Positions 7,059-59,643 of a DNA stretch of 64,000 nt are shown here, piece after piece. Source of the DNA: Parachlamydiales bacterium. Lineage in GTDB: Bacteria > Chlamydiota > Chlamydiia > Chlamydiales > SM23-39. The stretch lies in NCBI GenBank assembly GCA_016931275.1, contig JAFGFA010000009.1:7513-71512 (forward strand), written 5' to 3'. Every line of letters starts with the position of its first letter. Within the stretch, counting starts at the first letter, position 1. Below the pieces are notes generated by a model that searched no databases, was not told the origin of the DNA, and saw nothing but the letters and a program-made list of their open reading frames with translations. A program made the translations under genes and the position numbers.

Positions 7059-7062
7059 TACG

Positions 7063-8265: not shown

Positions 8266-8272
8266 GAGAAAA

Positions 8273-9490: not shown

Positions 9491-9494
9491 TCCC

Positions 9495-17224: not shown

Positions 17225-17288
17225 TCTACGCTCAACTATTTCTTTTTTTACCATTCTTGATATACTATTTTTCTTCAAGGTTAGTTTT

Positions 17289-31591: not shown

Positions 31592-31605
31592 ATACGGTCC
31601 ACCTT

Positions 31606-32718: not shown

Positions 32719-32722
32719 TGCG

Positions 32723-33898
32723 CTAATCCAATCTTTTAACAATTTTCAATCGGGCAATGAGGAAAAAAACAAATCCTAATGCAATCATAGGAAGAACATT
32801 AATAAAGACTAATTTTCCAACATTTCCGACTAAAAATAATGTTTGCAAGCAAGTGACAAAATATTTTGCCGGTATGAGATAAGTGAGATATTGAATAATA
32901 AGCGGCATACTGGAAATTTCAAAAAGAAATCCTGAAAGAATATAAGAAGGCAAAAAAGCTGCAATCAAGGCTATTTGAGAGGCAAAAAACTGATCTCTAG
33001 AAAACGTTGAAATCAAAAGCCCAATTCCTAATGCACAAAACAAAAAGATTGCCGAAACCAATCCTAAAAGAACTATGGATCCTCTAAGGGGAAGTCCGTA
33101 AAAAAACACGGAAACGGCAACACAAATAACCATTGATACCATGCCTAAAACAAAATAAGGAAGGATCTTTCCTAAAATAATTTCTAAAATAGTGGTAGAA
33201 GTGGCCATCATGGATTCCATGGTCCCTCTTTCCCATTCTTTAGCGACGACAAGAGCAGTTAATAAGGTTCCGATCAGGGTCATAATAATAGCCAAAGACC
33301 CTGAAAGTAAAAAATATCGACTTTCCAATTGTTCATTATACCAGACTCTGCTGTCGATATTAATCAAAGACAAATTTTGGACATTACGCAAAAACTTCTC
33401 TTGAAGCAACCAGTTTTGAAAAGCTCCTTGCACATAATTTTGCACGAAATTAGCAGTATTCGGTTCACTCCCGTCAGCAATCACCTGAATAGGAGCTATT
33501 TTCGAGTTTCGATATCGAAAGGAAGAAAAATAAGAAGGGACCACAACAAAACCACGAATATGGCCGCTTTCTAATTTTTCCAATACTTCTCGCGTATCCC
33601 GAACAATATCGACATCAAAATAATGAGAATCCGTCAATGCTTGGCAAAAACTGCGCGCATCGGGAGCCGTATCTTCTAAGACAAGTCCTATGCGGAGATG
33701 ATCTAAATCCAAAGACACTCCGTACCCGTATAAAAATAAAAGAAGTAATGGTAAAAAGACGCTGATCAAAAGAGTGCTGGGATCACGGATAATTTGAAAA
33801 AACTCCTTAATAAGGATCGCCCGTAATCGCCGTCTTTTTCCTTTATTGATAGCTTGTTCAAGCTGATCAGAGAGGATTTTTTGCATCGTATTCCTCAA
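32723..33898 (-). CDS. ABC-2 type transporter permease (YbhS-like)
   Basis: RLRAILIKEFFQIIRDPST N-terminal motif, a large periplasmic loop, then an ABC-2 membrane domain. Confidence 0.85.
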   Translation of the reverse strand: MRNTMQKILSDQLEQAINKGKRRRLRAILIKEFFQIIRDPSTLLISVFLPLLLLFLYGYGVSLDLDHLRIGLVLEDTAPDARSFCQALTDSHYFDVDIVRDTREVLEKLESGHIRGFVVVPSYFSSFRYRNSKIAPIQVIADGSEPNTANFVQNYVQGAFQNWLLQEKFLRNVQNLSLINIDSRVWYNEQLESRYFLLSGSLAIIMTLIGTLLTALVVAKEWERGTMESMMATSTTILEIILGKILPYFVLGMVSMVICVAVSVFFYGLPLRGSIVLLGLVSAIFLFCALGIGLLISTFSRDQFFASQIALIAAFLPSYILSGFLFEISSMPLIIQYLTYLIPAKYFVTCLQTLFLVGNVGKLVFINVLPMIALGFVFFLIARLKIVKRLD

Positions 33899-35606: not shown

Positions 35607-36466
35607 TTTTTCCCCTGCAGATTATACTTCTTGCCATCTAGCAGCAGTTTAATCGTCACGGGCATTCCCTGTTTTAAGTAATGATCGGGGTTATCTACAT
35701 AAATACGTAACCGATAGACAAGATCTGTACGAAGTTCGGTCGTTTCCACGGTTTTAGGAGTAAATTCTGCCACAGGAGAAATAAAACCGATCTTACCATG
35801 ATATATGGGTCCTCCTTCCGTATCTGTAATAATTTCCGCTGCCATGCCATAATAAATTTTGCCCAACTGTGGTTCGCTGACAAAGGCTCTAATCCATACG
35901 GGAGAAGCTACAGATATGGTATATACAGGATCGGAAGGATTAACCACGGTTCCTGGCTCTCGTATGCGCGTTAAAATAGTCCCCTCCGTAGGAGCATAAA
36001 CTTCCGTATAACGAAGATTATCTTGAGCTACCACTAGAGCAGCCTCGGCATAAGAGAGATCAGCGGTCAACACTTCCTGATTTGTTCGGGCATCATCCAA
36101 ATCTTCTTGAGAAACGCCTCCAACTTTTATTAATTCTTCTCGTCTTTGAACCATAATTTTCGCATTTTCCAAATGAGCTTGAACAGCACGGATACGAGCC
36201 TGCGCTTCTTCCACCTGGCTCACATAGGGCGTTTTATCCAATACGGAAAGCAGCATACCTGTTGTGACAATATCACCCTCCTCAAAAAACAATTGTTCAA
36301 CCTGTCCTGCCACCCTAAAGCCGATATCCACTTCTCTCACATCGACATTTCCATATAGGACCAATTCTCTTTTGTTTTTCGAAGGATGAGATATCACATA
36401 AGTCACAATAGCGGTCGCGAAAATAATAAGGGTTAGAAAAACTCCTAAAAATAAAAATCGTTTCAT
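35603..36466 (-). CDS. HlyD-family periplasmic adaptor (YbhG-like)
   Basis: N-terminal TM, lipoyl half-motifs flanking a short coiled-coil hairpin, 4-nt overlap with the ATPase gene. Confidence 0.85.
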   Translation of the reverse strand: MKRFLFLGVFLTLIIFATAIVTYVISHPSKNKRELVLYGNVDVREVDIGFRVAGQVEQLFFEEGDIVTTGMLLSVLDKTPYVSQVEEAQARIRAVQAHLENAKIMVQRREELIKVGGVSQEDLDDARTNQEVLTADLSYAEAALVVAQDNLRYTEVYAPTEGTILTRIREPGTVVNPSDPVYTISVASPVWIRAFVSEPQLGKIYYGMAAEIITDTEGGPIYHGKIGFISPVAEFTPKTVETTELRTDLVYRLRIYVDNPDHYLKQGMPVTIKLLLDGKKYNLQGKK

Positions 36467-44929: not shown

Positions 44930-45274
44930 CCATTTTCCCTTATTACTACCTATAAAGTTAAAGGGTTATTCAATGAGCGTCAAGGAGAAGTTATTGCCTG
45001 CGGCAAAAAATATACATCGTCCAATGGCATATATCCCATAGGAGATACGCCATTATCTATTTTTTCAAAGAATTTTTTGCTCTTGGTTTTTATAAAACCA
45101 AGAGCCATGAGCCCAAAACAGATTATCTACTGATCAACGAATATCTTAGTCCTCTTTTAGAACTTTTTAAAAAGGATTGTCGTATAAAATTTTTATAAAA
45201 AAATCTAATCCCCCTCCATAACACATATTTTTGTGTTATCCTCTTTGAAAAATTCCGGGAATAAGAAAATATTC

Positions 45275-45697
45275 TTAAATCTCTTCTTCTGAGGACCTAG
45301 GTGAGCATAACTCGCGGGAAACTCTTTGCCAGTCATCATGCATGTCTACAATAGCATTTATTGAAGTCCGACTCAGACTTTGTAATTTAAGAGCCTGTTT
45401 GGCCGCTAAGCTTATTTTTTGACCTAACAGTATTAAATCATCGATTGCCTTAGTCGAATCTTGAAAGTCTTGATACAACTCTGCAATGTTTATTTTTTGT
45501 TGCTCTTCAGTCAAACAACATCGGGTCGGATAGACTAAAAGAGTATTCTCTACGTCCCTATTGATTTCATTCCATTCTCGAGTCACTTCACTTATTCTAT
45601 CAGAGATGGAAGAAGGAATTTTTCGAATCTCTTCTCGTATCCTATCTTCTGCTAGTTGTTCCGGATTTCTAAAGTCACTAGATATAGTAATAGACAT
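45275..45697 (-). CDS. hypothetical acidic helical protein, last gene of the exporter string
   Basis: The ATG at 45697 (MSITISS) has AGGAG 7 nt upstream. The ORF-track start at 45730 lacks this. 140 aa with no recognisable motif. Confidence 0.55.
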   Translation of the reverse strand: MSITISSDFRNPEQLAEDRIREEIRKIPSSISDRISEVTREWNEINRDVENTLLVYPTRCCLTEEQQKINIAELYQDFQDSTKAIDDLILLGQKISLAAKQALKLQSLSRTSINAIVDMHDDWQRVSRELCSPRSSEEEI

Positions 45698-45786
45698 GAT
45701 TTTCTCCTTTTTGAGGCTATATGTTGCCATATCGATTTGTTTTAATCGATATTTTTCTATTAGAGACTAAATACAGAAAAAACGCG

Positions 45787-48681
45787 TTACCTCTGTTGAG
45801 CTACCCAAGCTGCAAACGGCTTATGTTGTTGCACCAATTCTTCAAATGTCCCAAAAGCTTCAATTTTACCGTGATCGAGAAAATAAATGCGATCCGCATT
45901 TTTTATAGTAGAAATACGATGAGCAATAACAATACGCGTAATCTTTAAATGTTCAATATTTTCTGATACTATCGCCTGAGATTTGCTGTCCAGAGCATTG
46001 GTAGCCTCATCAAAAATTAAAATTTTAGGATTTCCTAAAAGGGCTCGAGTGATAAGAAGCTGTTGTTTTTGTCCCCCCGATAAATTTTTTCCACTATCCG
46101 TAAGATAGGTATGCACTCCCATCGGAAAATCTTGCATAGTCACATCGAAACCGGTCAGCTGCATCGCTCTTGTGACCTCTTCTTGAGAAAAAATTCCTCC
46201 GCAGATTAGGTTATCATAAATAGTTCCTGCTAAAATCTCAGAATCCTGAAGGACAACGCCTAATTGTTGCCGTACTTTTTTAATATCTAAATCACTAACA
46301 TCTTTTCCATCATAATAAATACAGCCTGAAGAAGGTTCATTAAATTTAAGTAGAAGTCGAACTAAGGTCGATTTTCCACATCCTGAAGGACCGACAATGG
46401 CAATAAATTCTCCGGGTCTAGCTACCAAAGAGATTCCTCTTAAGATATCCGAAAGATTCTCCTCATAATGGAAAAAGACATTATCTATTTCTACAAGACC
46501 TTGCAACGTCCCTGGAGAAACCTGGTCTTTTAAAATCTCTTCCGGAGACGTAAAAATGACCTTAGACATTTTCCAACGAGGAATAACATTGCCAAATGTC
46601 TGAATTGCGATAGAAAAGGCATTATACATCGCAATAGAAAACGAACCGAACGCTGCATTAAAGGCAATAAAGTTCCCTATTTGAAATTCCACAACATTTT
46701 TGACCAGATACACTCCCAGAGAAAAAATGGAGAAGGTTCCTAGTATGGGCATCATCTGGTTAAATGCCTGCATAAAATTGGCGATATGCAACGAGAGAAT
46801 ATTATAAGACTGAATACGGGTATATTGTTTTCCCCATTTGGAGAAAATAATATGCTCAGCGGCTTTTAAACGAATTTTTTCTATCCCGGAAATCACCTGT
46901 ACTATAAAACCATTAAACAATCCTTGTTCCTGTAATATCATGGAGTCTATTTTCACTTTCCAACGAATACAGAAAATATTGATCAGGATTCCCAAAAATA
47001 AAACCATGATTCCCAATAAAGTCAATGGCCAACTATAATAAAACATCATTACGAGATAAAGAAGGGAAAAGACTCCGGTAAAAAGAACATTGAAAAAGCT
47101 GCTCGACAAAATGTTTTGGATCTGCCAAATAGAAAAGACCCTGCGAACGAGATCTCCTATAGTAAAGCGATGAAAAAAAGAGACCGGTAATTTTAGCAAC
47201 CTATCCCATAATCCTCCCTGCAACTTATTATGGACGAGTGTTTGTAAATGAAGAACTGCATAGGAACTGATAAAAGAAAACAGAGAAGCGCTGATGCCAA
47301 AAACAAGAAGACCAACCACTAATTGATGAATCAAAGAACCCTGTGCCAAGGGAATAATATAATTGAAAATAATCCCGTTTGCTAATGGCACAAAAAGGGC
47401 ACATACAATGCTTCCAAAACCCAATGCAATAATAGTCAAAATATCTTTTCTATGATTTTTAAAAACAGATTTCCTAAGATTTTTTTTCTCCGTAATATCC
47501 CCTTCTAAGGGAAGATAAAACATATAGGCATCTTTTTGGAGCGCAGATACCGTGTGAGAATTCATTTTTATTTCTCTCAATGTTTTAGGCTCAACGCTAT
47601 AATAAGAACCTCCTTTTCTAATCAAGGCCAAAGGAGAGCCTTCTTGATCCCATGCAAGCAAATGACCATTATCCTGTTTCCACCATTTTCCTACCAATCG
47701 CACCTGCCGGTAACGAACATGAGAATTTTCACAAATATGCATTAAGGCAGAATAGTCATTCTTTCCTTGGAACAGATCTTTTGGAATTGCAAACAAAAAA
47801 CCACTGTATTTTCCTATGATCTGACAACATTGCCCTATCATAGGAAGATGTCGCTCAACATAGGGAAATGTGCGTTTTTCAAAAACATCGATTAAACGCT
47901 GAAAAGCCGCATCGAGAATTTTTCTCCGTCTGTTTTTACTTTCCTTAATTCTTTTTTCTTCCTGTTTTTCCTTCTCTTCATAGGAGTAAATCAAGTACTG
48001 CACAATAAAATGATGAAAAATGGTCAACCCCTGTATCCATGATTGTTCTTCAACAATCTTGCTCGTTTCGTAAGTAACCAAGGAGCCTTTCTCCGTAATA
48101 CTCATCCAGTTGATATAGCATAACGGAAAAATACCCTCAAGAGGCATTAAAAAGGACTTTTCTCCCAAAAAATACAAATTGCCCTGCGTTACCTTAACCC
48201 AGATCAATTGATCCTTTTTGGTATGTTCAAAATAAGGGGCTATCTCCATAGAAACTTGAGGAGAAAACGTCTTTTCTTCTCCTAAATAAAAATAAGAGGA
48301 TATTTCCTTTTTAGGAATATGAATAATACTCTCATTCAATTCGATCACCCAACTCGAAATGTCTCGAATCAACTTGGTTCTGACATTTGCATCATTTTGA
48401 ACGATACTCTCCCAATCCTGTATGGAAATCTGTCTTAAAGCAGTGCTTGCATCAAGATAAGCTTGAATAAGGACATTGTCTAAAGAGACCCTAAAAGGAA
48501 AAACGATCTCTCCTTCCTGACGATGAATCAAAAAAATAGGAAGCTCTTCATTTTTTCCTTTTCTTTCAAAATAAATATCAATAGGGCCCTTTTCCACAAT
48601 CCAAACAACGTCATCCCTTTGAAGGGAAACATAACTAGTTCCCTCTTTTGCATGGATCAGTTCTCCTATGGATATATTCAT
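45787..48681 (-). CDS. NHLP-type bacteriocin-system ABC transporter, second subunit (cNMP-binding-like N-domain, degenerate peptidase-like domain, TMD and NBD)
   Basis: 964 aa. N-terminal beta-barrel-like domain, six-TM exporter domain, Walker A GPSGCGKST, LSGGQKQQ, ILIFDEAT, IAHR. Abuts the upstream ABC gene with 0-nt spacing. Confidence 0.8.
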   Translation of the reverse strand: MNISIGELIHAKEGTSYVSLQRDDVVWIVEKGPIDIYFERKGKNEELPIFLIHRQEGEIVFPFRVSLDNVLIQAYLDASTALRQISIQDWESIVQNDANVRTKLIRDISSWVIELNESIIHIPKKEISSYFYLGEEKTFSPQVSMEIAPYFEHTKKDQLIWVKVTQGNLYFLGEKSFLMPLEGIFPLCYINWMSITEKGSLVTYETSKIVEEQSWIQGLTIFHHFIVQYLIYSYEEKEKQEEKRIKESKNRRRKILDAAFQRLIDVFEKRTFPYVERHLPMIGQCCQIIGKYSGFLFAIPKDLFQGKNDYSALMHICENSHVRYRQVRLVGKWWKQDNGHLLAWDQEGSPLALIRKGGSYYSVEPKTLREIKMNSHTVSALQKDAYMFYLPLEGDITEKKNLRKSVFKNHRKDILTIIALGFGSIVCALFVPLANGIIFNYIIPLAQGSLIHQLVVGLLVFGISASLFSFISSYAVLHLQTLVHNKLQGGLWDRLLKLPVSFFHRFTIGDLVRRVFSIWQIQNILSSSFFNVLFTGVFSLLYLVMMFYYSWPLTLLGIMVLFLGILINIFCIRWKVKIDSMILQEQGLFNGFIVQVISGIEKIRLKAAEHIIFSKWGKQYTRIQSYNILSLHIANFMQAFNQMMPILGTFSIFSLGVYLVKNVVEFQIGNFIAFNAAFGSFSIAMYNAFSIAIQTFGNVIPRWKMSKVIFTSPEEILKDQVSPGTLQGLVEIDNVFFHYEENLSDILRGISLVARPGEFIAIVGPSGCGKSTLVRLLLKFNEPSSGCIYYDGKDVSDLDIKKVRQQLGVVLQDSEILAGTIYDNLICGGIFSQEEVTRAMQLTGFDVTMQDFPMGVHTYLTDSGKNLSGGQKQQLLITRALLGNPKILIFDEATNALDSKSQAIVSENIEHLKITRIVIAHRISTIKNADRIYFLDHGKIEAFGTFEELVQQHKPFAAWVAQQR

Positions 48682-50856
48682 TTATATCCCCTCTGCTTGT
48701 ATTAAAGTCTTATACAGGGGCGACTTTTCCATAAGCTCCTCGTGCTTTCCCCGTTCTACGATCTTGCCTTTGTCCAATACAATAATTTCATCGCAAGCCC
48801 GAACCGTAGAGAGTCTGTGCGCTATAATGATCATGCTACATCCTCTTCGACGAAGATTACGCATGATATCTCGCTCTTTTTCATAATCTAGAGAAGAAGT
48901 CGCTTCATCTAACACTAAAATAGTCGGATTAATCACTAAAGCTCGAGCAATTTCAATTCTCTGCCGTTGTCCACCACTCAAATTTTTTCCTTCTTCTAGT
49001 AATGGAGCATTATAACCTTGTGGGAGAGAGATAATTTCCTCATGAATACAAGCATCCTTGGATGCCTTAACGATATTCTCTTCAGAGATTGTTTCATCCC
49101 ATAAGGTAATGTTATCTTTGATCGTTCCTTCAAATAAAAAAATCGTTTGATCAACAGAAGATAACGAGCGAACACGATGGGCACGATCGATAGCAAAAAG
49201 CGGTTTTCCATCAATCAGAATCTCTCCGCTCCACAGTTCGTACAGTCCCATAATCAACTTGGCTATCGTCGTTTTTCCACATCCCGAAGCTCCAACAAGA
49301 GCAATAGAACTGCCGGGAGAAAGGTTCAGGGAAAAATGATCAATGAGAGGCTGTTTATAGGGATTATAACCGAAAGAAATATCGATCAATTCTAGATGAC
49401 CGCGAAGAGGGGAAGAAAATTCCGAAAGGTTTTCTTGAACCTCATCTATAGAAAGCTCTTCCTTGTTGTCTAAAACATCATCGATACGATGCAGATCTCC
49501 TTTCACCTGCTGAATCGTTTGCCCCAAGCTTATAAACTGACTAAAAGGAGTTAAAAAGCTTATAATAAATACCTGCAACGCCAAAAGCATTCCAATAGAA
49601 AGATTTCCTCTTAACACTTCTATCGAACCAAAATAGAGAAAAAAAGCCGTCGTAATCATTTGCATCAATGGAGGCACCGCCGTTAAAAAAAGATCCTTAA
49701 AATTGATCTCTTGCATAGAAAGAGACGCTTTCGCAAAGTGTCCTGCCCAACGACTGAAAAAATCGTTTTCCATACCGAAGGCTTTTATCGTTTCCATATT
49801 GCGCAAGGCTCCTACAGAGACCCCTATGCTTTTTCCAAAATCCTGCTGAGAACGGGCATAAGCATCTTTTCTAGAACGATTGATCACTAGTAAAGTAAAA
49901 AGGTTGACCCCTGCAGAAGCAATTGCAATTCCCGAAATAGACAAGCTTACCTGGACCATGACAAAGAGATAAAAGACCACAAAAATCAGATTTACTCCCG
50001 CAATCACTATTTGTCCTGTAATTGCCTGGATCACCGTATCATTAGTCAGCAGACGATTGGCAATTTCTGCAGGATATCTTTGCGCAAAAAAACGAATGGG
50101 AAGACGTAAAATATGCCAGAAAAATTTACTCGACAAGGTAATAGAAAGCTTCAGATTCATCAACATTAACACATAGCGCTGTAACCAAGAAAGAGCTCCG
50201 ATCAGCAGCATTGTGACAAAGAGAGCAACAAAAAACATATGATATGAAAAATGTGCCGGCAAAATTTTATCAAAAAATATCTGTGTAAAAATCGGGATCG
50301 ATAATCCGGGAATCACCAATGCAAAAGTGGTAAGAACAATATGAGCCAGAGAAGCAACAACCCCCTTCATTCTTTTTCTCAATGCATCGATAAGGCTAAG
50401 AGGAGTACCGCCTTTTTGAAAACCCTCTCCCGGCTGTAATTCAATAACAATACCGGTAAAGGATTCATCAAATTCTTCGTAAGAAACACTCCTCGGTCCT
50501 GAAGCGGGATCGTTAATAAAAAACTTGCTCCCTCGAAACCCTTCAACCACGACAAAATGATTAAAATTCCAAAACACGATAAAAGGCAAAGGCAAAGAAT
50601 ATAGATCTTGGATCTCTTTGGTATATCCTGCTGCAGTCATTCCCAATTTTTCTGCACCTTTGACCACTTGAAGGGCATTACTGCCATCTCGAGTAACGCC
50701 GCAAATAGTTCTCAATTCTTCTAAAGGCACGAATTTCTTATAAAAGGACAAGACGATGCTTAAAGCCGCTGCTCCGCATTCTACGGCTTCCATTTGAATC
50801 ACTGTAGGAGTTCGGATCCTGTTCCCCAAGAATCTTCTTTTTATCTTCTTCCACAT
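48682..50856 (-). CDS. C39 peptidase-domain ABC transporter (bacteriocin processing and export; NHLP-type first subunit)
   Basis: C39 domain with catalytic Cys27 (TPTVIQMEAVECGAAAL), His (NHFVVVEG) and Asp (INDPASG). Type-1 exporter TMD. Walker A GASGCGKTT, LSGGQRQR, ILVLDEATSSLD. Confidence 0.9.
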   Translation of the reverse strand: MWKKIKRRFLGNRIRTPTVIQMEAVECGAAALSIVLSFYKKFVPLEELRTICGVTRDGSNALQVVKGAEKLGMTAAGYTKEIQDLYSLPLPFIVFWNFNHFVVVEGFRGSKFFINDPASGPRSVSYEEFDESFTGIVIELQPGEGFQKGGTPLSLIDALRKRMKGVVASLAHIVLTTFALVIPGLSIPIFTQIFFDKILPAHFSYHMFFVALFVTMLLIGALSWLQRYVLMLMNLKLSITLSSKFFWHILRLPIRFFAQRYPAEIANRLLTNDTVIQAITGQIVIAGVNLIFVVFYLFVMVQVSLSISGIAIASAGVNLFTLLVINRSRKDAYARSQQDFGKSIGVSVGALRNMETIKAFGMENDFFSRWAGHFAKASLSMQEINFKDLFLTAVPPLMQMITTAFFLYFGSIEVLRGNLSIGMLLALQVFIISFLTPFSQFISLGQTIQQVKGDLHRIDDVLDNKEELSIDEVQENLSEFSSPLRGHLELIDISFGYNPYKQPLIDHFSLNLSPGSSIALVGASGCGKTTIAKLIMGLYELWSGEILIDGKPLFAIDRAHRVRSLSSVDQTIFLFEGTIKDNITLWDETISEENIVKASKDACIHEEIISLPQGYNAPLLEEGKNLSGGQRQRIEIARALVINPTILVLDEATSSLDYEKERDIMRNLRRRGCSMIIIAHRLSTVRACDEIIVLDKGKIVERGKHEELMEKSPLYKTLIQAEGI

Positions 50857-50859
50857 ATC

Positions 50860-51744
50860 TTATTTAACTTTTATATCATGAGATAAAGCATCGTTTCTAT
50901 CGGCCCAAAAAGGTAACAAATAGGAAAAGGGATGTCTTTGTTCTATGATCACCTCAAGAGTGACGAAACTCCCCAGAGGGATTTCCTCTTTTTTAGGCCC
51001 CTTGCCTGATGTCCAAAGAAATTCATCTGCAGCTATTGAAGAAGGCACAGGACGCACAATGACAGGAAGTAAAGGAGTATTTGCAATCATATGTTCTATA
51101 TAAGTCTGATTAAGATAAATACTTTTAAAATAGCTTTCCGTTGCGGGAAGATAAGAAATTTTCTCAACAACCGCTTCGATTCCTCCATATAGCCCTCGAG
51201 CAATACCCCACGGATAGACTCGCACACTCATTCCCTCTTTGACCTGATCTCCGAGTTTAGGAGGAAGAAAACAATAAAATCGGTCTTCCCCTTCTTCTTT
51301 TCTTCCTAATTGCAAAGAGGCAATGACAGCATCTACTGTAGCCCGATTTCCCTTCCCTTGATAAATGTCGATTACAAGTCCCGCATAGGGGGTTCTAATT
51401 TCTGTTTCTTTGCTCGCATTTTTATCCCATAGAACGGCGATCACCTGCCCCTTATCGACCCGATCTCCTAAGGTTACAGGAATACGCAAAATATCTCCTT
51501 CAATAGGACTGGAAATATGATGGAAACGGGTAAAATCAAGATAGATCCCTTCTCCGACAGCCAGAGTATTAATCGTCCCAAAAAGTGCCCATAAAACACC
51601 GAAGACAATGATGAAGGACAAAACTATTAATGCAATCCATGCCTTGGGCTTCACGACATGCAACAAAGTATCTAATTGTTCGGGAGAATATAACTTTTTC
51701 AAGGCCGATTTACGAAAAATAGGAGATGTTTTTTCATGATCCAT
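50860..51744 (-). CDS. HlyD-family secretion adaptor, NHLP bacteriocin-system type, hairpin-less
   Basis: N-terminus FRKSALKKLYSPEQLD followed by a TM, as in NHLP-system HlyD proteins. The lipoyl halves (SPIEGDILRIPVTLGDRV.. and IRTPYAGLVIDI) are separated by only about 10 residues. Confidence 0.8.
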   Translation of the reverse strand: MDHEKTSPIFRKSALKKLYSPEQLDTLLHVVKPKAWIALIVLSFIIVFGVLWALFGTINTLAVGEGIYLDFTRFHHISSPIEGDILRIPVTLGDRVDKGQVIAVLWDKNASKETEIRTPYAGLVIDIYQGKGNRATVDAVIASLQLGRKEEGEDRFYCFLPPKLGDQVKEGMSVRVYPWGIARGLYGGIEAVVEKISYLPATESYFKSIYLNQTYIEHMIANTPLLPVIVRPVPSSIAADEFLWTSGKGPKKEEIPLGSFVTLEVIIEQRHPFSYLLPFWADRNDALSHDIKVK

Positions 51745-51802
51745 AGAAATGTGAGCTCCTTAAGCTCACAATAGTCAAATCTGTGAAGAATATCAAATAT
51801 TT

Positions 51803-51985
51803 TTACAAATTATGCGTCAATGCATAATAAATCACATATATCCAAGAGAGAAAACCATGAATGATCGCCCATATCAAGGACTTGTTTACAGTATAAGAGA
51901 CGACCATTGCCAGAGCAGAACCAAAAGAAATTCCCTCGCGAATAAAATATTTTCTATAAAAACAACCTTTTTCCATTTTGCTCAT
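51803..51985 (-). CDS. small conserved two-TM membrane protein
   Basis: The start at MSKMEKG (51985) avoids overlap with the RND gene. The core ISFGSALAMVVSYTVNKSLIWAIIHGFLSWIYVIYYAL resembles a widespread small-protein family of unknown function. Confidence 0.55.
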   Translation of the reverse strand: MSKMEKGCFYRKYFIREGISFGSALAMVVSYTVNKSLIWAIIHGFLSWIYVIYYALTHNL

Positions 51986-51992
51986 TCCTTTT

Positions 51993-54900
51993 TTAGAGAA
52001 CATCCATAGATTGCGATCCCCCACCTTTTTTTGATGAGAAAAAACGAGAAAAAACCCGTTTTATTTTTTCTATATAATAAAACACTATAGGCGTCAATAC
52101 AAAGGTGAAAAGAATCGAGGCGAGCATCCCCCCCATCATAACAGCTCCCATAGAAGATTTTGTCTCTTCAATGGCGTGAAGCTGAGGAACGACACCAAAA
52201 ACAATTGCCAAAGAGGTCATTAAAATCATTTGGAAACGCTCTTTGCTCGCTTCCCATAATGCCTGTTTCAAATCCAGAGCAGCCATTTTTTGAATAGTGC
52301 TGTCGACCAACAAAATAGAATTGTTCACAACAAGCCCCACTAACATAACCATCCCAAGCATAGAAGCGATATTAATAGATTCTTCCAAAAAGAAAAGAGT
52401 ATAATACACCCCAATAAAAGATGTTGCCACAGAAAGGATAATCGATATTGGATAAGAAAAAGAGTTTAAAAGGGCCGCCAGTAACATATAAGTTAAAACT
52501 ACAGCGAGGAAAAATGCTTTTACAATTTCCAATGCAGATTCTCTTTGTGTCTCATCAGCTCCAGAAAAAACATACCAGGCATCTTCTGTTGTAAGATCCT
52601 TAAATTCTTTTTCTAATATCTTCTTCATATGAGAGGGATTCGATTTTCCTAACATGCCATCGAGTTTAATCACTCTTTGTTTATCCTCATGGACAATAGG
52701 AGGAACTGCCTCTCTTTTTTCTATTCTTCCCAACGATGTAATGGGCAAAAGTCCGTTTCTAGTAATCAAATGAATCTGATGAATATCATCCAGTCCTCGG
52801 ACATATCGGTCATTCATTTTGACAGAAATATTATATTCTTTTCCTCCTTCTTTATAAATATTGTTGTCATCTCCATAAAGAGCTGTTCGTAATGCAGCAC
52901 CCACTTGAACATCCCGAATCCCGTTCTCTAAAAGGGTTGAAGTATTTGGTAAAAAACATAATTCTTTTTTAGGCTTTTTATAAGAGGAAGAAATAGATTG
53001 AAAATATCCCGTGGCAATCATTTTATCTTCCATTTTTTGAGAAAGATCGATCATTTTATCATAATCATTCCCATAAATCGCTAATGTCATATCTCCTTCA
53101 TCAAATCCTTTCTGCGCACCTCGAATAATAGAAACGTCCAAGTCGGCAATCTGCGAAAGCTTGGAAATAATGCTAGTGATAATTTCTGTATCCTTTCTCT
53201 TTCTTTTCTCTCTAGAAGACAAATGGACCGTCACGGAAGAATTTTCAGCCCCCTTAATCCCAACAAGGGAAATATAGGATTCAAGTTCCGGAATATTCCG
53301 AACAATCTCTTCAACGCGCTGCGTCAACGAAAGAGTATAATCCAGAGAAGATCCCTGTGGGGTCTGTGATTTGATGATAAATTTATCTTCATCAGAACGA
53401 GGAAAAAAATTCCCTGAGATATAAGGGGTCACATATCGAACAGACACAAAAAAGATCAGGACAGCTACAACTGTCCATTTTGGAAACCGAAAAATAAAAT
53501 GAAATAATTTTTCATACTTTTTTATTAAGAATTCCACTGTTCTTCGAAGAGGAACAAACCGGGTAGGCTTAGCATTTTTTAATAAATAACAACATAACAT
53601 GGGCGTTAAAATAAATGAGACCACCAGGGAAAAAATCGTAACAAACACAACAGTCATCCCAAAAGAAAACATAAAACGGCCGATAATACCTTTCATAAAG
53701 GCAATGGGAAGAAAAACAACTAAGTTCGTCCCTGTAGCAGCAAGAATTGCTGAGGTTACTTCCTTCGTTCCCTGAATTGCGGCATCAAAAGAGTTCTTCC
53801 CTTGTTTCAAATGCAGCCAAAAACTATCGATAATGACGATCGCATTGGAAATAAGAGTTCCTAATGCTGACGCTAAGGCCAAAAGAGTTAAGAAATTAAT
53901 CGTAAAGTCAAAAGCATCCATAAGGAAAAAAGTAGCAATAATAGAAATAGGAATAATCAAAGATGCTATAAAAGTTAATCGCACATTACCGGTAAAGAGA
54001 AATAAAATTACAACTGTCAGAACAATCCCGATCAATATATCCATCTCTGTATTAATATTCTCCCGGATAATGACCTTAGTATTATCCGTCACAATATCCA
54101 AAGACGTATCTGTTGGTAATGATGCTGTAAAGTCTTTCATTTTTCGCTGAATTTGACGGCCGATATTAACTGCATTGCTATCAGAAGATTTTTTAACGGA
54201 AAGAATCAAAGCGTTTTTTCCATTTAGTCGAGCTACTTTTTCTATTTTTTTATATCCATCTTCAATAGTCGCTATGGAAGATAAAGGAACAATCTCTCCG
54301 TTGCGTGTAATTAAAGAAACCTTTGCAATATCTTCCATCGATTCAAATTCCCCCACGAACTTCACATTATAAGAAGCCAGGGTGTTTTCGATTTCTCCGC
54401 TGGGAATATTCATATTCTGCGTCTGCATCATGCCTAGGACATCTTCCGTACTGATATAATGTTCTTTCATAAGCATAGGATCCAGACGAACATTAATTTG
54501 TCTTTCTTGTCCTCCAATGATCTCGACACTGGCAACATCTTTAATAGCCAATAAACGATCTTTCAATGTTTTATCGGCATAATCATACAATGCTTTTTCA
54601 TCTAAAGAGGAACTTGTCAGAGCCATTTCCATAACTGGTTGTACAAAAGGGTCAAATTTTTGAACAATCGGCTTCTGCATCCCCTTAGGAAATTTATTGG
54701 CCAGAGCATCAATCTTATCTTTGACCTCGATAAATTTGGTGTTGGAATCCGCAGAGAGCAAAAATTGCACAAGAACAAGTCCAAAATTTTCATACGATTG
54801 GCTTCGGATTTTTTTGACCTCGGAAAGTTCCGACACAGCATCCTCCACCTTATTGATGACCAAAGATTCCATTTCAGCGGGGGAAGCTCCGGGATAGACA

Positions 54901-55040
54901 AAAGAAATCGTGATCAAAGGAAATTCGACTTTCGGTTGTTTATCTAAATTCAAGTTAAAAAAGGAAACGATTCCCAATATTACCAAAAGAGACACAAACA
55001 TAATAGTCGTTACAGGTCGTTTGACAAAGAACTCAATCAT
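51993..55040 (-). CDS. RND efflux pump inner-membrane component (AcrB/HAE1-like)
   Basis: 1015 aa, N-terminus MIEFFVKRPVTTIMFVSLLVILG, 12-TM plus two large periplasmic loops. Confidence 0.92.
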   Translation of the reverse strand: MIEFFVKRPVTTIMFVSLLVILGIVSFFNLNLDKQPKVEFPLITISFVYPGASPAEMESLVINKVEDAVSELSEVKKIRSQSYENFGLVLVQFLLSADSNTKFIEVKDKIDALANKFPKGMQKPIVQKFDPFVQPVMEMALTSSSLDEKALYDYADKTLKDRLLAIKDVASVEIIGGQERQINVRLDPMLMKEHYISTEDVLGMMQTQNMNIPSGEIENTLASYNVKFVGEFESMEDIAKVSLITRNGEIVPLSSIATIEDGYKKIEKVARLNGKNALILSVKKSSDSNAVNIGRQIQRKMKDFTASLPTDTSLDIVTDNTKVIIRENINTEMDILIGIVLTVVILFLFTGNVRLTFIASLIIPISIIATFFLMDAFDFTINFLTLLALASALGTLISNAIVIIDSFWLHLKQGKNSFDAAIQGTKEVTSAILAATGTNLVVFLPIAFMKGIIGRFMFSFGMTVVFVTIFSLVVSFILTPMLCCYLLKNAKPTRFVPLRRTVEFLIKKYEKLFHFIFRFPKWTVVAVLIFFVSVRYVTPYISGNFFPRSDEDKFIIKSQTPQGSSLDYTLSLTQRVEEIVRNIPELESYISLVGIKGAENSSVTVHLSSREKRKRKDTEIITSIISKLSQIADLDVSIIRGAQKGFDEGDMTLAIYGNDYDKMIDLSQKMEDKMIATGYFQSISSSYKKPKKELCFLPNTSTLLENGIRDVQVGAALRTALYGDDNNIYKEGGKEYNISVKMNDRYVRGLDDIHQIHLITRNGLLPITSLGRIEKREAVPPIVHEDKQRVIKLDGMLGKSNPSHMKKILEKEFKDLTTEDAWYVFSGADETQRESALEIVKAFFLAVVLTYMLLAALLNSFSYPISIILSVATSFIGVYYTLFFLEESINIASMLGMVMLVGLVVNNSILLVDSTIQKMAALDLKQALWEASKERFQMILMTSLAIVFGVVPQLHAIEETKSSMGAVMMGGMLASILFTFVLTPIVFYYIEKIKRVFSRFFSSKKGGGSQSMDVL

Positions 55041-55043
55041 TTT

Positions 55044-55721
55044 TTACTCCTCACCATATATGTGAATTTTTTCTTTATGATTCAAATATTTTCCTCCTTG
55101 GATTACCACAAGGTCTCCCTCTTCGAGTCCTCTCTGAATCACCATGGTTTCACCATTCTCTTTGCCACAAACCACATAGGTCTTAAGGCAATGACCATCT
55201 TTCACAACCCATGTATAGGCAAGATTTTTTTCTCTATAGACCGCTTCGATCGGTAAAACAATCGATTGAGAACCGTGAGGGTTCGACAAGTCCGCAATAA
55301 ACGTCCCCGAAGGCAATTCGCTCTGCAAAGGAAAAAGCCCTTCGACACGAAATAAGCCTTTTGCGCGATCCAAACTCTCGCTCAAAAAAGTAATCTCTCC
55401 GATAATCGGACGTTTATCTCGATACAATAGAACACGAGTATCATTTTTAATTTGTTCGCTCATCTCCTGCGAAACATAGGCATAAAATTTATTATCGGCA
55501 ATACTGGTAATAGTCAGAGGAACAGTCGTAGAAACATCGGACAAACGGATCTGTAACACTTTTACGGGCTTTCCTAATTTTTGCCGCTCTCCAGAAAAGC
55601 TCACAATAGGCTGTTCATTTTTAGTGATAATGCTTTTTTGCTTACCCCTTACTAATCCAATAAACAAAAGGATTAACAAGAAACATAAGAATGTGTTTAG
55701 CAACTTTTTACTCATGGGCAT
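55044..55721 (-). CDS. truncated-architecture RND periplasmic adaptor (MFP) lacking hairpin and lipoyl regions
   Basis: 225 aa. N-terminal TM, then beta-barrel/membrane-proximal-like sequence ending GLEEGDLVVIQG. Positioned between the OMF and RND genes. Confidence 0.65.
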   Translation of the reverse strand: MPMSKKLLNTFLCFLLILLFIGLVRGKQKSIITKNEQPIVSFSGERQKLGKPVKVLQIRLSDVSTTVPLTITSIADNKFYAYVSQEMSEQIKNDTRVLLYRDKRPIIGEITFLSESLDRAKGLFRVEGLFPLQSELPSGTFIADLSNPHGSQSIVLPIEAVYREKNLAYTWVVKDGHCLKTYVVCGKENGETMVIQRGLEEGDLVVIQGGKYLNHKEKIHIYGEE

Positions 55722-57012
55722 ATTCTCTCCCTGTCAGCATTTCAATTTTCGCAAGAGCGACATTCAACTTAAACAAGGTCGTCGCCGTCTTCATCTTCTG
55801 ACTAGTAAGCATCATTTCCGCATCATTTAAGTCCGTAAGTGATATTTGTCCCGACTTCAGAAGTTCTTGACTCATGATAAAGGATTGTTGCGCTAAAGAA
55901 AGCGCTTCTTTTTGGGCAGGCAACACTTTAATTAATTCATTATATTCCAAGAGGCTTTTTTCCAACTCAAGAGTAAGCTGTTTGTGGATCTTCTTATACG
56001 AAAGTTCTGTATTCATTTGATCCATTCGAGCCTGTTTCACTTTAAACATCGTCGTAATACTAGTCGTCAAAGGGACCTGCAAGTTAATTCCTACCGTAGC
56101 ATAATAGCGCAAAAAGACATCTCCTACATAAAAATCATCGTTGCTAGCCCCTTTGTAATTATAACGCGCAAAACCGGAAAGCGTCGGATAATAATAGGCT
56201 TTTTTGTTTTTCACAAAATATTCTTGCCCTTCTGACACAAGTTTCATCGCTTTCAATAAGGGATGATTGGCCAACATTTGCGATAACGCTTCATCCGAAT
56301 CTACAAAAGGATATACTTCAGGATATTCTGAGGACAACTCTATGGACCCGACAGGTTCCATTCCCAACTGTTTTTTCAACGTCTCCGTTGCCGTATTATA
56401 AGAAGTTTCCGCACTGGCAATCATGGGAACTCGGGCCGCAATATCGGCATCGATTTTAATATTGTCTCGTTTCGATACTCTCCCTTCGCGAGATCGTTGA
56501 AACAAAATTTCCTTATTTCTTCTCGTACTATTATAGGATTGCTGCATTACGTCTAACATTTCATGCGCACAAAGGACGTTATAATACATAACTTTTGTAG
56601 AAAAAAGAACCTCTTGCCTTGTATTCTCTTTTTGAAATACCGCCGCTTGCTCCATTTTTTTAGACCCTTTTAATAAGGAAGAAATTTTCCCAAAAGTAGT
56701 AATAATCTGATTCGCACTAATCCCATAATCTAGAGTAAAATCCCTTATGGAAGCAGAATGAGGCATATCTTTCGGATATTTAAAATTTCTAACCCAAGTG
56801 ACATCTCCTGCAACTTGAGGAAGCAGTGTCGATTGTATTTCTCGATATTGAGCAATGCTCTTATCTACATCGTTCACTTTAATCTGATATTCCTCATTTT
56901 CATCTACGGCCATCTCTAAAGCTTTTTGAAGAGATAGGGAAGAAAGATCGTCATTTCCCCATAAGGGAAAAACAAAACACATTAATAAACATGTATGAAC
57001 TATTTTGGACAT
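55708..57012 (-). CDS. TolC-family outer membrane efflux protein
   Basis: Signal peptide, two OEP repeats with long helical segments. Confidence 0.85.
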   Translation of the reverse strand: MSKIVHTCLLMCFVFPLWGNDDLSSLSLQKALEMAVDENEEYQIKVNDVDKSIAQYREIQSTLLPQVAGDVTWVRNFKYPKDMPHSASIRDFTLDYGISANQIITTFGKISSLLKGSKKMEQAAVFQKENTRQEVLFSTKVMYYNVLCAHEMLDVMQQSYNSTRRNKEILFQRSREGRVSKRDNIKIDADIAARVPMIASAETSYNTATETLKKQLGMEPVGSIELSSEYPEVYPFVDSDEALSQMLANHPLLKAMKLVSEGQEYFVKNKKAYYYPTLSGFARYNYKGASNDDFYVGDVFLRYYATVGINLQVPLTTSITTMFKVKQARMDQMNTELSYKKIHKQLTLELEKSLLEYNELIKVLPAQKEALSLAQQSFIMSQELLKSGQISLTDLNDAEMMLTSQKMKTATTLFKLNVALAKIEMLTGREYAHE

Positions 57013-57650
57013 TGTAATGATTCCTGTAAGGTATGCAAATGAAACTTATATATGTTAGTCAACTTGTTAAAATTCTGACTATTCAATGAAAGGGGCACTC
57101 CTATTAAGATGGAATGAAAGATATAACTCAAGTCCTGTGCCGAAAACTTATTAGAGAAAACATTTGCTTTCTGAGCCTGCTGAATTAATTCCCGAAACAC
57201 TTCTCGTAGCGGAATAATAGTAATCGTATCAATCGCCTCATAATGAGGAAATAAAATCTTTTTCTCAAGAACATCTAATTGCTCTATCTGCGGAATGTTT
57301 TGTTTCCATTCAAACAAGACCCCTACTACTTCAAAAAATAAATAGGGATGAGTAATTTTTTTTTCGAAAAGCTCGAACAACAATTCAATTTTCTTAAGAG
57401 GAGCCAGATGTTTTTCTCTATAAAAAAGGATCCATAACATTTCTAAATGTTGTGTTAGGGTAAAATAACAAATAACATCGATTTTTTGAGGAAAATAATT
57501 ATAAAAGGTCGCCTCAGAGACTCCTACTTCTTCACAAATCTCTTTAATGGAAATGGCGGAAAATCTCACGGAATAAAGCTTCTGTATGAACGCTTTTGTC
57601 AACGCTAATTTTGTCTCGATTATTTTTCTTTTTCGCAATGTTATTGTCAT
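57000..57650 (-). CDS. TetR/AcrR family transcriptional regulator
   Basis: N-terminal HTH (FSAISIKEICEEVGVSEATFYNYFPQK). 13-nt overlap with the OMF gene. Confidence 0.88.
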   Translation of the reverse strand: MTITLRKRKIIETKLALTKAFIQKLYSVRFSAISIKEICEEVGVSEATFYNYFPQKIDVICYFTLTQHLEMLWILFYREKHLAPLKKIELLFELFEKKITHPYLFFEVVGVLFEWKQNIPQIEQLDVLEKKILFPHYEAIDTITIIPLREVFRELIQQAQKANVFSNKFSAQDLSYIFHSILIGVPLSLNSQNFNKLTNIYKFHLHTLQESLQCPK

Positions 57651-57688
57651 CCTAACTACTCTATCGTTGAAACAGAAAATCTAAATTT

Positions 57689-57714
57689 AGTTAACTCTAT
57701 TTTTAGAGTCAACT
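57689..57714. promoter_or_regulatory. candidate TetR operator (imperfect palindrome)
   Basis: AGTTAACTCTA-tttt-TAGAGTcAACT, with 10 of 11 positions complementary. It lies 39-64 nt upstream of the tetR-like start. Confidence 0.4.
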
Positions 57715-57804
57715 CTAAAATTTTCTCTATACTCCTCTGACAAAGAACAAATACTGTTCCTTTTAAGAAAAATGAAGCTTATTGCCAAACCACTTATTAA
57801 CTTT

Positions 57805-59643
57805 TTAAGGAAGGTTCGAAATCTTCAAGCCAATCTTTTCCAATTCCGGATACAAAATGCCTAATTCCTGAGGAAAGATAATATATCCCGCATAGGTAAT
57901 CTCCAAAAAAACCGATTCAAAAAAAAGACTTTTATTTAAATAAGGATGGAGAATGCGTAAAAAATCTTCCAACAATTTAGAACGAGCTCCTAAACTGGGA
58001 TACGTGAATACAAAAAACGCCGATTCATTATACATCATCATCTCGGGAAAAGAATAAGACGTTCTTTTCGCGGCATCTAAAGCCAACAAAAAGAGCCTAT
58101 GGATCTCCATTTTATAACGAAAAAGAGCTTCTACCGGCCTTATTGCATAAAAAAACTTTTCCACAAAAAGCTCTTTTCCTTTTACAAAATCCTTCACGTT
58201 TCTTTTAAAAGATTCGTAAGCCTGATTTTGCTTGAAGATCATCCCTCCATTATAGTCCCTTAGATCCTGAAATAAACGAAGAAGCTCTGCATAAGCCTCT
58301 TGCCGCGCTTTATGAATGTCTAAAGAATGGTCCTCCCTCAGATAAGGAGCTGCCGGCAAAAGAAGGCGAAAGACAAGAACCTCTTTGGGATATTTCTTTC
58401 GCACTTTTCCAACAACACGGCTTCTCTCTAAGACAATTTTATAGACTGATTTTTTCGCACTTAGTATTTCTTCTACAGAAGGAACAGAAGGCTTGACTAT
58501 GCGCGCTAATATGATGCTAAACCCTATTTCCTGATCATTTTGCTGATCAAACTGAATGATGACTTGGGGAATATCGTCGACATATTTTAACTCATCTGCA
58601 AGAACGGAAATATTTTTGAGGATTTCTTCTTCATTTCTCGGCATAAAAATCGGATGAATTAATTTCTCGATTTCCGCCATTGCATAAACGGGCAACTCCA
58701 TTCGCAACTTCTGTATCTCCTTTTCATGAAAAGGCATTCCGTTCCTCTCTACTTCCAAATATATGGTATGAATTCCGTTTAATGACGATTTATCCTCGTA
58801 ATAAGAATGAATCAAGGGATGAAGAGAAGGATCCACTTTTTGTAGGGCTCTTAAAAAATGCTCCCGATCAAAAACCTCATTTTTCTGAAGCATCCAGGAA
58901 AACAAAATCGCTAAAACGCTTTTTTTATTTTTTCCATCCTGTACGCCATTTTTCAAAAATTTCATGAGATGATGGCGAATCAAAGAATTTTTTTTAATCT
59001 TCTGCTCCAGCAATTTCTGCATGATAAAAAGGGTAAAGATCACTCGACTAACATGATAAGGTTCTCTTTGCTCGATAAAATCAGAGGAGACATGGACTAA
59101 AAAACGACGCATATAATCCATAATTTCCGATCCAAAATCTTTGGAATGTCCTCTCATAAGATGTGCAATTTTTTCTTGAATCAGATACGAGCGATTATCA
59201 ACACCCAGCGGCTTAAATCCCAAAACCTCTTCCGCTTCTTTTTCTCCTTGAAGTCCAAAAATCAGCTCCTCTTCTATCATAGACTTTATTCGGATCATCT
59301 GATCTGCTTCTTCTTCGTTTTCCATCTCAATTGTTATAGAAAAATAACACAAGGAATTTTTGCGATCTTCTACAGAAAAACGACACATGGACCATGCCGT
59401 CAAAGATCGTTTATATTGAGGAGTCAGCAATAAACGATGACGCAACGTATAAGAGATAAAAGAAAGGAGATGTTCTTTGTAAGGAGCAATACCCTCTATC
59501 TCTAAAACCTTTCTGTTACGATTCCATATAATAAAAGGAATCAAATCGGAAGAAAGTTCCTGATCGTTTTTCTCGAGGAGATTCACTATAAAAGGATAAA
59601 AATGATCCGGCGCGTGAATTTCTTTTAGAACAATGCCGCCCAT
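57805..59643 (-). CDS. hypothetical protein (612 aa), translationally coupled to the upstream kinase gene
   Basis: Long uninterrupted ORF. Its ATG overlaps the aspartokinase stop (TAATG at 59641-59645). No motif recognised. Confidence 0.6.
   Translation of the reverse strand: MGGIVLKEIHAPDHFYPFIVNLLEKNDQELSSDLIPFIIWNRNRKVLEIEGIAPYKEHLLSFISYTLRHRLLLTPQYKRSLTAWSMCRFSVEDRKNSLCYFSITIEMENEEEADQMIRIKSMIEEELIFGLQGEKEAEEVLGFKPLGVDNRSYLIQEKIAHLMRGHSKDFGSEIMDYMRRFLVHVSSDFIEQREPYHVSRVIFTLFIMQKLLEQKIKKNSLIRHHLMKFLKNGVQDGKNKKSVLAILFSWMLQKNEVFDREHFLRALQKVDPSLHPLIHSYYEDKSSLNGIHTIYLEVERNGMPFHEKEIQKLRMELPVYAMAEIEKLIHPIFMPRNEEEILKNISVLADELKYVDDIPQVIIQFDQQNDQEIGFSIILARIVKPSVPSVEEILSAKKSVYKIVLERSRVVGKVRKKYPKEVLVFRLLLPAAPYLREDHSLDIHKARQEAYAELLRLFQDLRDYNGGMIFKQNQAYESFKRNVKDFVKGKELFVEKFFYAIRPVEALFRYKMEIHRLFLLALDAAKRTSYSFPEMMMYNESAFFVFTYPSLGARSKLLEDFLRILHPYLNKSLFFESVFLEITYAGYIIFPQELGILYPELEKIGLKISNLP

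Follow-up and report, generated by a model that had tools for sequence, protein, structure and literature searches.

The question raised by this locus is whether an efflux pump and a peptide exporter, encoded in one string of genes, form a single composite envelope machine or are two modules that adjoin. The locus is from a Parachlamydiales bacterium (assembly GCA_016931275.1, contig JAFGFA010000009.1, positions 7,513 to 71,512, forward strand), and these 64,000 nt, the whole stretch of DNA analysed, are referred to as the window. Nine minus-strand open reading frames (ORFs) run head to tail from 57650 down to 45275. The first four encode a TetR-family regulator, a TolC-type outer-membrane factor (OMF), a short membrane fusion protein (MFP) and a resistance-nodulation-division (RND) permease, and are called the pump module. 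The next four encode a small hydrophobic protein, a HlyD-like adaptor and two ATP-binding cassette (ABC) subunits, ABC1 and ABC2, of the nitrile-hydratase-leader peptide/Nif11-leader peptide (NHLP/N11P) type, and are called the exporter module. The ninth encodes a 140-aa protein. The original prediction, made from the sequence alone, proposed that pump and exporter may form a composite, co-regulated module sharing one OMF. This was not supported by the closest relative of the exporter locus, by stand-alone pump loci, by the separate control elements, by the hairpin-less exporter adaptor or by a second OMF gene in the window. The string is likely to hold two separately inherited export modules that are neighbours by chance in this lineage, and the best reading is that they were juxtaposed by a lineage-specific rearrangement, with possible incidental read-through. 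They are regarded as two ordinary modules and not as a composite machine because relatives carry pump and exporter apart.

Relatives of the exporter were collected in a survey of 165 NHLP-adaptor loci from genomes and metagenomes, 96 of them of at least 12 kb, which were searched by tblastn with the window RND, OMF and MFP. The locus search was seeded with a subset of five adaptor sequences, as an alignment of 14 sequences was too diverse. The window adaptor belongs to a short-adaptor clade with 13 other proteins of 281-328 aa (41-64% identical to it). One locus of this clade (L006) came from the scan of genome contigs and none from that of metagenome contigs, in which all full-length matches were at most 33% identical. 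The closest relative, L003, has the same order as the window: a kinase gene (71% identity), a 612-aa gene (54%), and genes for the small protein (65%), the adaptor (64%) and ABC1 (76%). None of tetR, OMF, MFP and RND lies between the 612-aa gene and the small-protein gene of L003. In the small-protein ORF of L003, no start codon (ATG, GTG or TTG) is available between the conserved region and the stop codon preceding it, a hint of rearrangement on that side. The pump cassette may have been inserted in the lineage of the window, or lost or relocated in that of L003.

Within the clade the exporter trio (adaptor, ABC1, ABC2) is constant and its flanking genes differ between loci. The trio is kept in at least nine further clade loci (adaptor 41-64%, ABC1 50-76% identity), beside a Fic gene, genes without known function after rpoBC, a divergent S66 peptidase gene or a divergent GT92 glycosyltransferase gene. 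At one locus the neighbour is an ATP/ADP translocase (TLC) gene, after which comes a hairpin with a T-run that resembles a terminator. Of the eight short-adaptor-clade relatives with informative upstream context, none has an RND operon running in the same direction ahead of the exporter.

The pump cassette is likewise found without the exporter, as a widespread stand-alone unit of three to four genes, including in genomes named Parachlamydiales, Waddliaceae and Omnitrophota. In L089 (RND 67% identical), which is from the same sequencing run as L003, the genes for OMF, a 228-aa MFP and RND are followed by a glycosyltransferase-like gene; this cassette lies on a different contig from the L003 exporter of the same sample. 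L086 (RND 65%) has OMF, a 226-aa MFP and RND, then a convergent BipA gene. L087/L088 (RND 56%) have a tetR gene with a 35% identical product, OMF (48%), a 219-aa MFP (27%) and RND, then an integrase gene. No NHLP-type exporter follows the cassette in L086, L087/L088 or L089. Among the 165 other NHLP-adaptor loci an RND gene lies near the adaptor at one, L005, a member of the short-adaptor clade (adaptor 43% identical) with a divergent operon of OMF, a 379-aa MFP with hairpin and RND. The L005 RND is 24% identical to that of the window and non-orthologous, and L005 is an independent juxtaposition. The window was itself chosen for showing the pump-exporter trait; L005 is one further case among about eight informative relatives. 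Conservation of the RND-exporter adjacency, on whose absence in relatives the original prediction was to be given up, was not seen in L003, in the stand-alone pump loci or, with the one case in 165, in the survey.

The trio is supported as an NHLP/N11P-type transport cassette by profile scores. ABC1 scored 945.1 bits against TIGR03796 (cutoff 853.3), its residues 15-720 covering the entire model, and comprises Peptidase_C39 (E 1.7e-34), ABC_membrane and ABC_tran domains. By sequence inspection its C39 residues Q21, C27, H100 and D116 are intact, in the motifs QMEAVECG, NHFVVV and INDPA. ABC2 (residues 284-963, model positions 6-685 of 686) scored 704.6 bits against TIGR03797, 4.8 bits short of the cutoff of 709.4 and more than 380 bits above the next family. 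The adaptor gave 149 bits in two stretches against TIGR03794 (cutoff 156.2), falling short because its coiled-coil hairpin is missing. The comparison with the NHLP transport models proposed in the original prediction thus came out above cutoff for TIGR03796, with TIGR03797 and TIGR03794 slightly below their cutoffs though the best matches. Walker A, Walker B, signature and H-loop motifs are intact in both ABC subunits. The order adaptor, ABC1, ABC2, with gaps of 3 and 0 nt in the window, was identical in 83-84 of the 85 loci surveyed.

The window cassette resembles the described NHLP/N11P cassette in having an adaptor, a C39-ABC and a second ABC in matching order, in an ABC1 above the curated cutoff, in an ABC2 and adaptor whose best matches by far are TIGR03797 and TIGR03794, and in an adaptor colinear with full-length family members outside the hairpin. 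It differs in that the adaptor is shorter by about 135 residues, the coiled-coil hairpin; ABC2 and adaptor are 5-7 bits below the curated cutoffs; a gene for a small hydrophobic protein precedes the adaptor; and neither an NHLP/Nif11 precursor nor a modification enzyme is encoded near the trio. What defines the family is its association with precursors of the NHLP or Nif11-leader type ending in Gly-Gly, which are not always encoded beside the transporter genes (Haft, Basu and Mitchell 2010, PMC2887384). No such NHLP (TIGR03793) or Nif11 (TIGR03798) precursor was found among the 65 small ORFs of the window by inspection, regular expressions and NCBIfam scans of the candidates, and no Gly-Gly-leader precursor was found beside the trio in short-adaptor-clade relatives. 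The Gly-Gly regular-expression scan, run over the window and L001-L006, returned false positives only. With its catalytic and nucleotide-binding motifs intact and a clade of 13 other short adaptors, the module looks functional as judged from sequence. It is best read as an NHLP-type peptide-processing exporter of small membrane protein, adaptor, C39-ABC and second ABC. Going by the family, a leader of the Gly-Gly type would be removed by the C39 domain, and translocation of the peptide would fall to the two ABC subunits, probably paired as a heterodimer.

ABC2 carries an N-terminal extension of 283 aa, conserved (about 280 aa) in NHLP loci of other phyla. It had been labelled as cyclic nucleotide monophosphate (cNMP)-like, which could not be confirmed: there was no Pfam match at E up to 1 and no relevant PDB sequence match from a 13-sequence profile, and hhalign against Escherichia coli CRP gave an insignificant E of 0.26, with the alignment in register with the beta-roll. 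HetC of Nostoc PCC 7120 is a peptidase-containing ABC exporter with an N-terminal cNMP-binding domain (PMC10986499). The window ABC2 is like it in having an N-terminal extension ahead of the transporter core and differs in that a cNMP-binding fold could not be confirmed there.

The 60-aa protein has two hydrophobic stretches and no Pfam or NCBIfam family. Its ATG lies 7 nt past the RND stop codon, preceded by an AAGGA Shine-Dalgarno sequence; starting instead from a GTG at 52024, the protein would have 73 aa. In L003, where there is no RND cassette, a homologue with 65% identity is encoded immediately before the adaptor gene (at about 4733-4903), and for this reason the gene is assigned to the exporter and not to the pump. 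The protein was also considered as bacteriocin-like cargo, with FGS at residues 21-23, and rejected: at -4, -7 and -12 it departs from the leader consensus, and its features are those of a membrane protein. In three short-adaptor-clade loci (the window, L003 and L006, the last at 248-478) the adaptor gene has a small hydrophobic ORF in front of it. No homology was detected between the 76-aa L006 protein and the 60-aa protein that the window and L003 share. The exporter module may repeatedly include a small membrane partner that evolves fast.

The exporter adaptor was compared with the longer members of its family by hhalign, using a profile of the short-adaptor clade against full-length NHLP adaptors (383-431 aa). 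The match (probability 100, E 1.6e-54) was colinear apart from a single gap of about 135 residues, at the place of the coiled coil in the long forms. An AlphaFold2 (AF2) model of the 294-aa adaptor (mean predicted local distance difference test, pLDDT, 77) has one transmembrane helix followed by all-beta domains, with no long helices after the transmembrane segment. The coiled-coil hairpin of canonical tripartite type 1 secretion and ABC efflux systems (HlyBD-TolC, MacAB-TolC) is thus missing from it. In the genome survey the short forms occurred mostly in single-membrane bacteria (Microbacterium, Cohnella, Paenibacillus, Lactobacillales) and forms of about 410 aa in Acidobacteriota, Myxococcota and Campylobacterota, whereas the short form of the window sits in a double-membrane, chlamydia-like organism.

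The best PDB fold matches of the 294-aa adaptor were eight chains of Borrelia BesA (E about 2e-13). BesA, of BesABC of Borrelia burgdorferi, is an adaptor without alpha-hairpin (PDB 4KKS/4KKT/4KKU; PMC3807786). As the best structural match, and likewise hairpin-less, it illustrates that such an adaptor can serve a pump using a TolC-like channel. However, BesA partners an RND pump and the 294-aa adaptor an ABC exporter, and sequence identity to BesA is only 12-17%. Canonical TolC docking is difficult to square with a hairpin-less adaptor and an ABC exporter that has no large periplasmic domain. Because the adaptor has no alpha-hairpin, cargo of the exporter module would most likely cross the inner membrane without the adaptor meeting a TolC-type channel in the canonical tip-to-tip manner.

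The pump module was identified from the same kinds of evidence. The tetR product matches PF00440 TetR_N (27.2 bits, cutoff 24) and is 35% identical to the product of the gene preceding the orthologous OMF-MFP-RND genes of L087/L088. The OMF has two repeats of PF02321 OEP (E 7.5e-41) and matches TIGR01844 (E 4e-26); it shares 48-59% identity with the OMFs encoded in the stand-alone cassettes L086-L089, in which its linkage to the pump is kept. RND covers positions 1-1020 of the 1021 of PF00873 ACR_tran (685 bits) and scored 645 bits against NF033617, under the cutoff of 1250. Its homologues at 48-67% identity include proteins source-named Parachlamydiales, Waddliaceae, Chlamydiota and Omnitrophota. 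With a GC content of 0.369 against 0.378 for the window, the cassette gives no signal of foreign origin. The module resembles AcrAB-TolC and MexAB-OprM in its full-length ACR_tran permease, its two-repeat OEP channel, the position of the adaptor gene between OMF and RND, and a leading TetR gene with a putative palindromic operator over its own promoter. It differs from them in its order on one strand (regulator-OMF-MFP-RND) and in an adaptor of just 225 aa without lipoyl domain or hairpin. It is best read as a tripartite HAE1-type RND efflux pump, putatively autoregulated by TetR.

The 225-aa MFP matches just positions 163-320 of the 322 of TIGR01730, that is, the C-terminal half. Its AF2 model (pLDDT 93.4) consists of a transmembrane helix, a beta-barrel and a membrane-proximal domain; the lipoyl and hairpin domains of the four-domain adaptor (membrane-proximal, beta-barrel, lipoyl, hairpin) are missing. 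The model superposes on the beta-barrel and membrane-proximal domains of AcrA and MexA over about 170 columns at 3.3-3.8 Å, and BesA is among its best structural matches. BesA has been described as being without the hairpin only (PMC3807786, PMC8277102), in contrast to the 225-aa MFP, which is also without the lipoyl domain. A word-index search with the short MFP returned only itself; relatives came from exhaustive phmmer, in which more than 100 clusters (50% identity) of 217-241 aa aligned with it end to end. Orthologues of 219-228 aa are encoded at L086 1401-2081, L087/L088 9339-9998 and L089 1072-1758. The MFP is a member of a large family of about 220-240 aa with beta-barrel and membrane-proximal domains only, for which no description was found in the literature searched. 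In reviews BesA is termed an aberrant adaptor; two-domain MFPs are more reduced still, and could inform how RND pumps recruit outer-membrane channels without adaptor hairpins.

The two modules have separate control elements. The tetR promoter-operator region (57683-57720, minus strand) contains the palindrome TTTTAGAG-TTGA-CTCTAAAA, with its core at 57703-57718, and a second, imperfect palindrome at 57683-57702; a promoter-like TTGACT-17-TAAATT overlaps both. The exact motif TTAGAG-N4-CTCTAA occurs just upstream of tetR and nowhere else in the window. It is absent from the upstream region of the exporter, and matches with two mismatches are at chance level in the window. In L088, TTAGAG-cctg-CTCTAA lies just downstream of a TTGACA, ahead of the tetR start, and these half-sites support a conserved, putative TetR operator of the pump module. 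TetR would probably bind TTAGAG-N4-CTCTAA across its own promoter.

The palindrome upstream of tetR had been named as the only palindromic operator candidate, which did not hold, since a perfect 8+8 palindrome precedes the ATG of the adaptor. The 58-nt gap before the adaptor gene contains a promoter-like TTGATA-17-TATTGT followed by this palindrome, TGTGAGCT-taagg-AGCTCACA, which is unique in the window as TGTGAGCT-N5-AGCTCACA and unrelated to the TetR operator. The AAGGAG ribosome-binding site of the adaptor falls in the loop and 3' arm of this palindrome. At the equivalent site L003 has TTGCCA-17-TATTGT and an identical 23-nt block, ACTATTGTGAGCTTAAGGAGCTC. The exporter module would thereby have its own promoter-like element directly before the adaptor gene, the one real argument for this putative internal element being its conservation with L003. 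Folded as RNA, the region gave -14.9 kcal/mol (z -1.9), and 8 of 200 shuffles folded at least as well. In the terminator scan the palindrome headed the list of terminator-like sites; with its weak T-tail it could serve at most as a leaky terminator or as a hairpin acting on translation.

Several results weigh against separate modules. L005 also has an OMF-MFP-RND operon beside its adaptor, which is weak evidence for a possible recurrent association. L003 and L089 share a sample, and one common genome for them is not proven. Promoter-like matches occurred at the background rate (40 found, 37.8 expected). There is no strong intrinsic terminator between the RND gene and the exporter, the gap hairpin having its weak T-tail, in agreement with the claim that no convincing terminator lies inside the string. 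The small gene starts 7 nt past the RND stop codon, which makes co-transcription with the pump probable for that gene at least. Finally, the MFP of the pump is hairpin-less yet always linked to an OMF, so lack of a hairpin alone does not exclude OMF use here.

Of the rival explanations, transcriptional coupling of two separate machines is the most probable. Read-through from the TetR-controlled promoter would co-induce the exporter, and the hairpin at the ribosome-binding site of the adaptor would modulate translation of the read-through transcripts. The 7-nt gap leaves room for a promoter of the small gene solely inside the RND gene, and the stem-loop sequesters AAGGAG above a weak T-tail; a transcript from the internal site would start inside the 5' arm and so free the ribosome-binding site. 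However, L003 does not share the outer 3 bp of the stem, the z-score is modest given the shuffles that fold as well or better, and, with the arrangement found in this lineage alone, any coupling must be recent and could be incidental. Coupling is rated as a possibility on the unlikely side. With two separately inherited modules, read-through from the pump into the small gene, and perhaps further, would still be possible.

A true composite, in which TetR controls one nine-gene transcript and both RND pump and ABC exporter dock to the OMF of the string, is very improbable. Its appeal lies in the co-directional, tightly spaced genes without a canonical terminator, in the start of the small gene so close to the RND stop codon, in the second case of an RND/OMF operon beside a short-adaptor gene in L005, and in the observation that type 1 secretion systems usually rely on an OMF whose gene lies elsewhere in the genome and which works for several systems (PMC6959600). 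The adjacency, however, is absent from the closest relative and from all stand-alone pump loci, an RND gene lies near just 1 of the 165 other adaptor loci, and the L005 pump is non-orthologous (24% identity) and divergent. In known ABC-type tripartite systems TolC is contacted by an adaptor hairpin, which the exporter adaptor does not have, and the TetR operator is absent upstream of the exporter. The OMF of the string, said to be the single one encoded, has a counterpart 14 kb away in the window, at 30146-31591.

Sharing of an OMF could also be framed on BesA: hairpin-less adaptors would be the rule in the clade, both adaptors would engage TolC-type channels by non-canonical contacts in the BesA manner, and the juxtapositions in the window and L005 would reflect OMF sharing. 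This too is regarded as highly doubtful. If it were true, a host-associated bacterium could secrete a Gly-Gly-leader peptide or effector across both membranes. Least probable is that the exporter is a decaying or orphan remnant without cargo or current function in a host-associated genome, since, against the lack of an NHLP, Nif11 or Gly-Gly-leader precursor in the 64 kb or beside the trio in clade relatives, the apparent frameshift in the L003 ABC1 and two of three proteins just under curated cutoffs, there stand three full-length ORFs with intact catalytic and ATP-binding motifs, retention of the trio in at least nine further clade loci and the known separation of some NHLP/N11P precursors from their transporter genes (PMC2887384).

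A composite envelope machine would have been of a new kind, and the evidence against it removes a false lead. What makes the two separate modules of interest is not the claimed fusion but the two-domain MFP family and the occurrence of a hairpin-less NHLP adaptor in a double-membrane clade. That a chlamydia-like clade has an NHLP-type exporter with a hairpin-less adaptor raises the question of what is secreted and where the cargo ends up.

The layout of the string was checked against the ORF list. The nine minus-strand genes and all eight junction distances, recomputed along the string as -13, -14, 3, 7, 58, 3, 0 and 89 nt, agreed with the original prediction, and scans with hidden Markov models bore out the family identities (TetR, OMF, RND pump, NHLP/N11P-type trio). 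Its assignment to a chlamydia-like organism was supported by a CT021-family protein encoded in the window and by the closest homologues of adaptor and RND, which include proteins source-named Chlamydiota, Parachlamydiales and Waddliaceae. Genes of the same orientation extend beyond the string on both sides, over about 20 kb (60437-40276), and a common strand is therefore in itself poor evidence of operon structure. GC skew is negative across nearly the whole window. Coordinates of the string and of the element before the adaptor gene are given in the table.

Table. Genes of the pump-exporter string and the element preceding the adaptor gene, in window coordinates
Feature	Position	Strand	Remark
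tetR, TetR-family regulator (216 aa)	57000-57650	-	pump module, gene 1
OMF, TolC-type (434 aa)	55708-57012	-	13-nt overlap with tetR
MFP, short periplasmic adaptor of RND pump (225 aa)	55044-55721	-	
RND, HAE1-type inner-membrane permease (1015 aa)	51993-55040	-	pump module, final gene
Small hydrophobic protein (60 aa)	51803-51985	-	exporter module, gene 1
Promoter-like element and palindrome	51750-51796 (palindrome 51770-51750)	-	consensus/palindrome scan
NHLP-type HlyD-like adaptor (294 aa)	50860-51744	-	
ABC1, C39 peptidase/permease/ATPase (724 aa)	48682-50856	-	
ABC2, second ABC subunit (964 aa)	45787-48681	-	
140-aa protein	45275-45697	-	

The 140-aa ORF starts 89 nt past the ABC2 stop codon, behind a strong AAGGAG ribosome-binding site. 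Its product has no Pfam or NCBIfam family and no Gly-Gly leader, and no homologue of it adjoins the trio in the 169 loci searched. It was considered as cargo or as a module member and rejected on these two grounds, the missing Gly-Gly motif and the missing homologue beside any trio; it probably belongs to neither module. A perfect 12-bp inverted repeat, GCTCTTGGTTTT-ata-AAAACCAAGAGC, lies at 45079-45105 in the 345-nt gap 3' of this gene. It is a candidate end of the transcription unit, with a sense-strand tail that is A-rich and not T-rich.

Upstream of tetR, a 612-aa protein is encoded at 57805-59643 (minus strand); this protein, of 605-612 aa in the window and L003 (2866-4683 there), has no Pfam or NCBIfam family. 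Its gene overlaps the upstream gene of amino-acid-kinase fold by 1 nt in the window and 4 nt in L003. The ABC1 gene of L003 (5876-7589) is split into two ORFs near 7100 (410 aa and a further piece), either as a frameshifted pseudogene or through an assembly error. The second OMF of the window, of 481 aa, belongs to another export operon (30146-36466, minus strand) that is complete and spans the envelope; its other genes encode a HlyD-family adaptor (287 aa), a double ABC ATPase (579 aa) and two ABC-2 permeases (391 and 378 aa).

Elsewhere in the window, a Fic/DOC-family gene (24421-25572) lies behind a tmRNA gene (23952-24314). A 26-nt stretch of the tmRNA 3' end recurs as a direct repeat (24291-24316 and 25614-25639, 96% identical) that frames the two genes, and 23952-25639 looks like a small islet integrated at ssrA; no integrase gene is present within it. 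On the plus strand, 6321-11356 encodes a LolA-like protein, two FtsX/MacB-type permeases and an ABC ATPase in tight succession, the run ending with an overlapping gene for a 387-aa protein without Pfam family. Candidate eukaryote-like or chlamydia-specific proteins of the window, also on the plus strand, are an ankyrin-repeat protein (11879-12817) and the CT021-family protein (17127-18263). A further candidate of this kind, with a RING finger, is encoded just upstream of the exporter trio of another locus (L001, 7786-8250).

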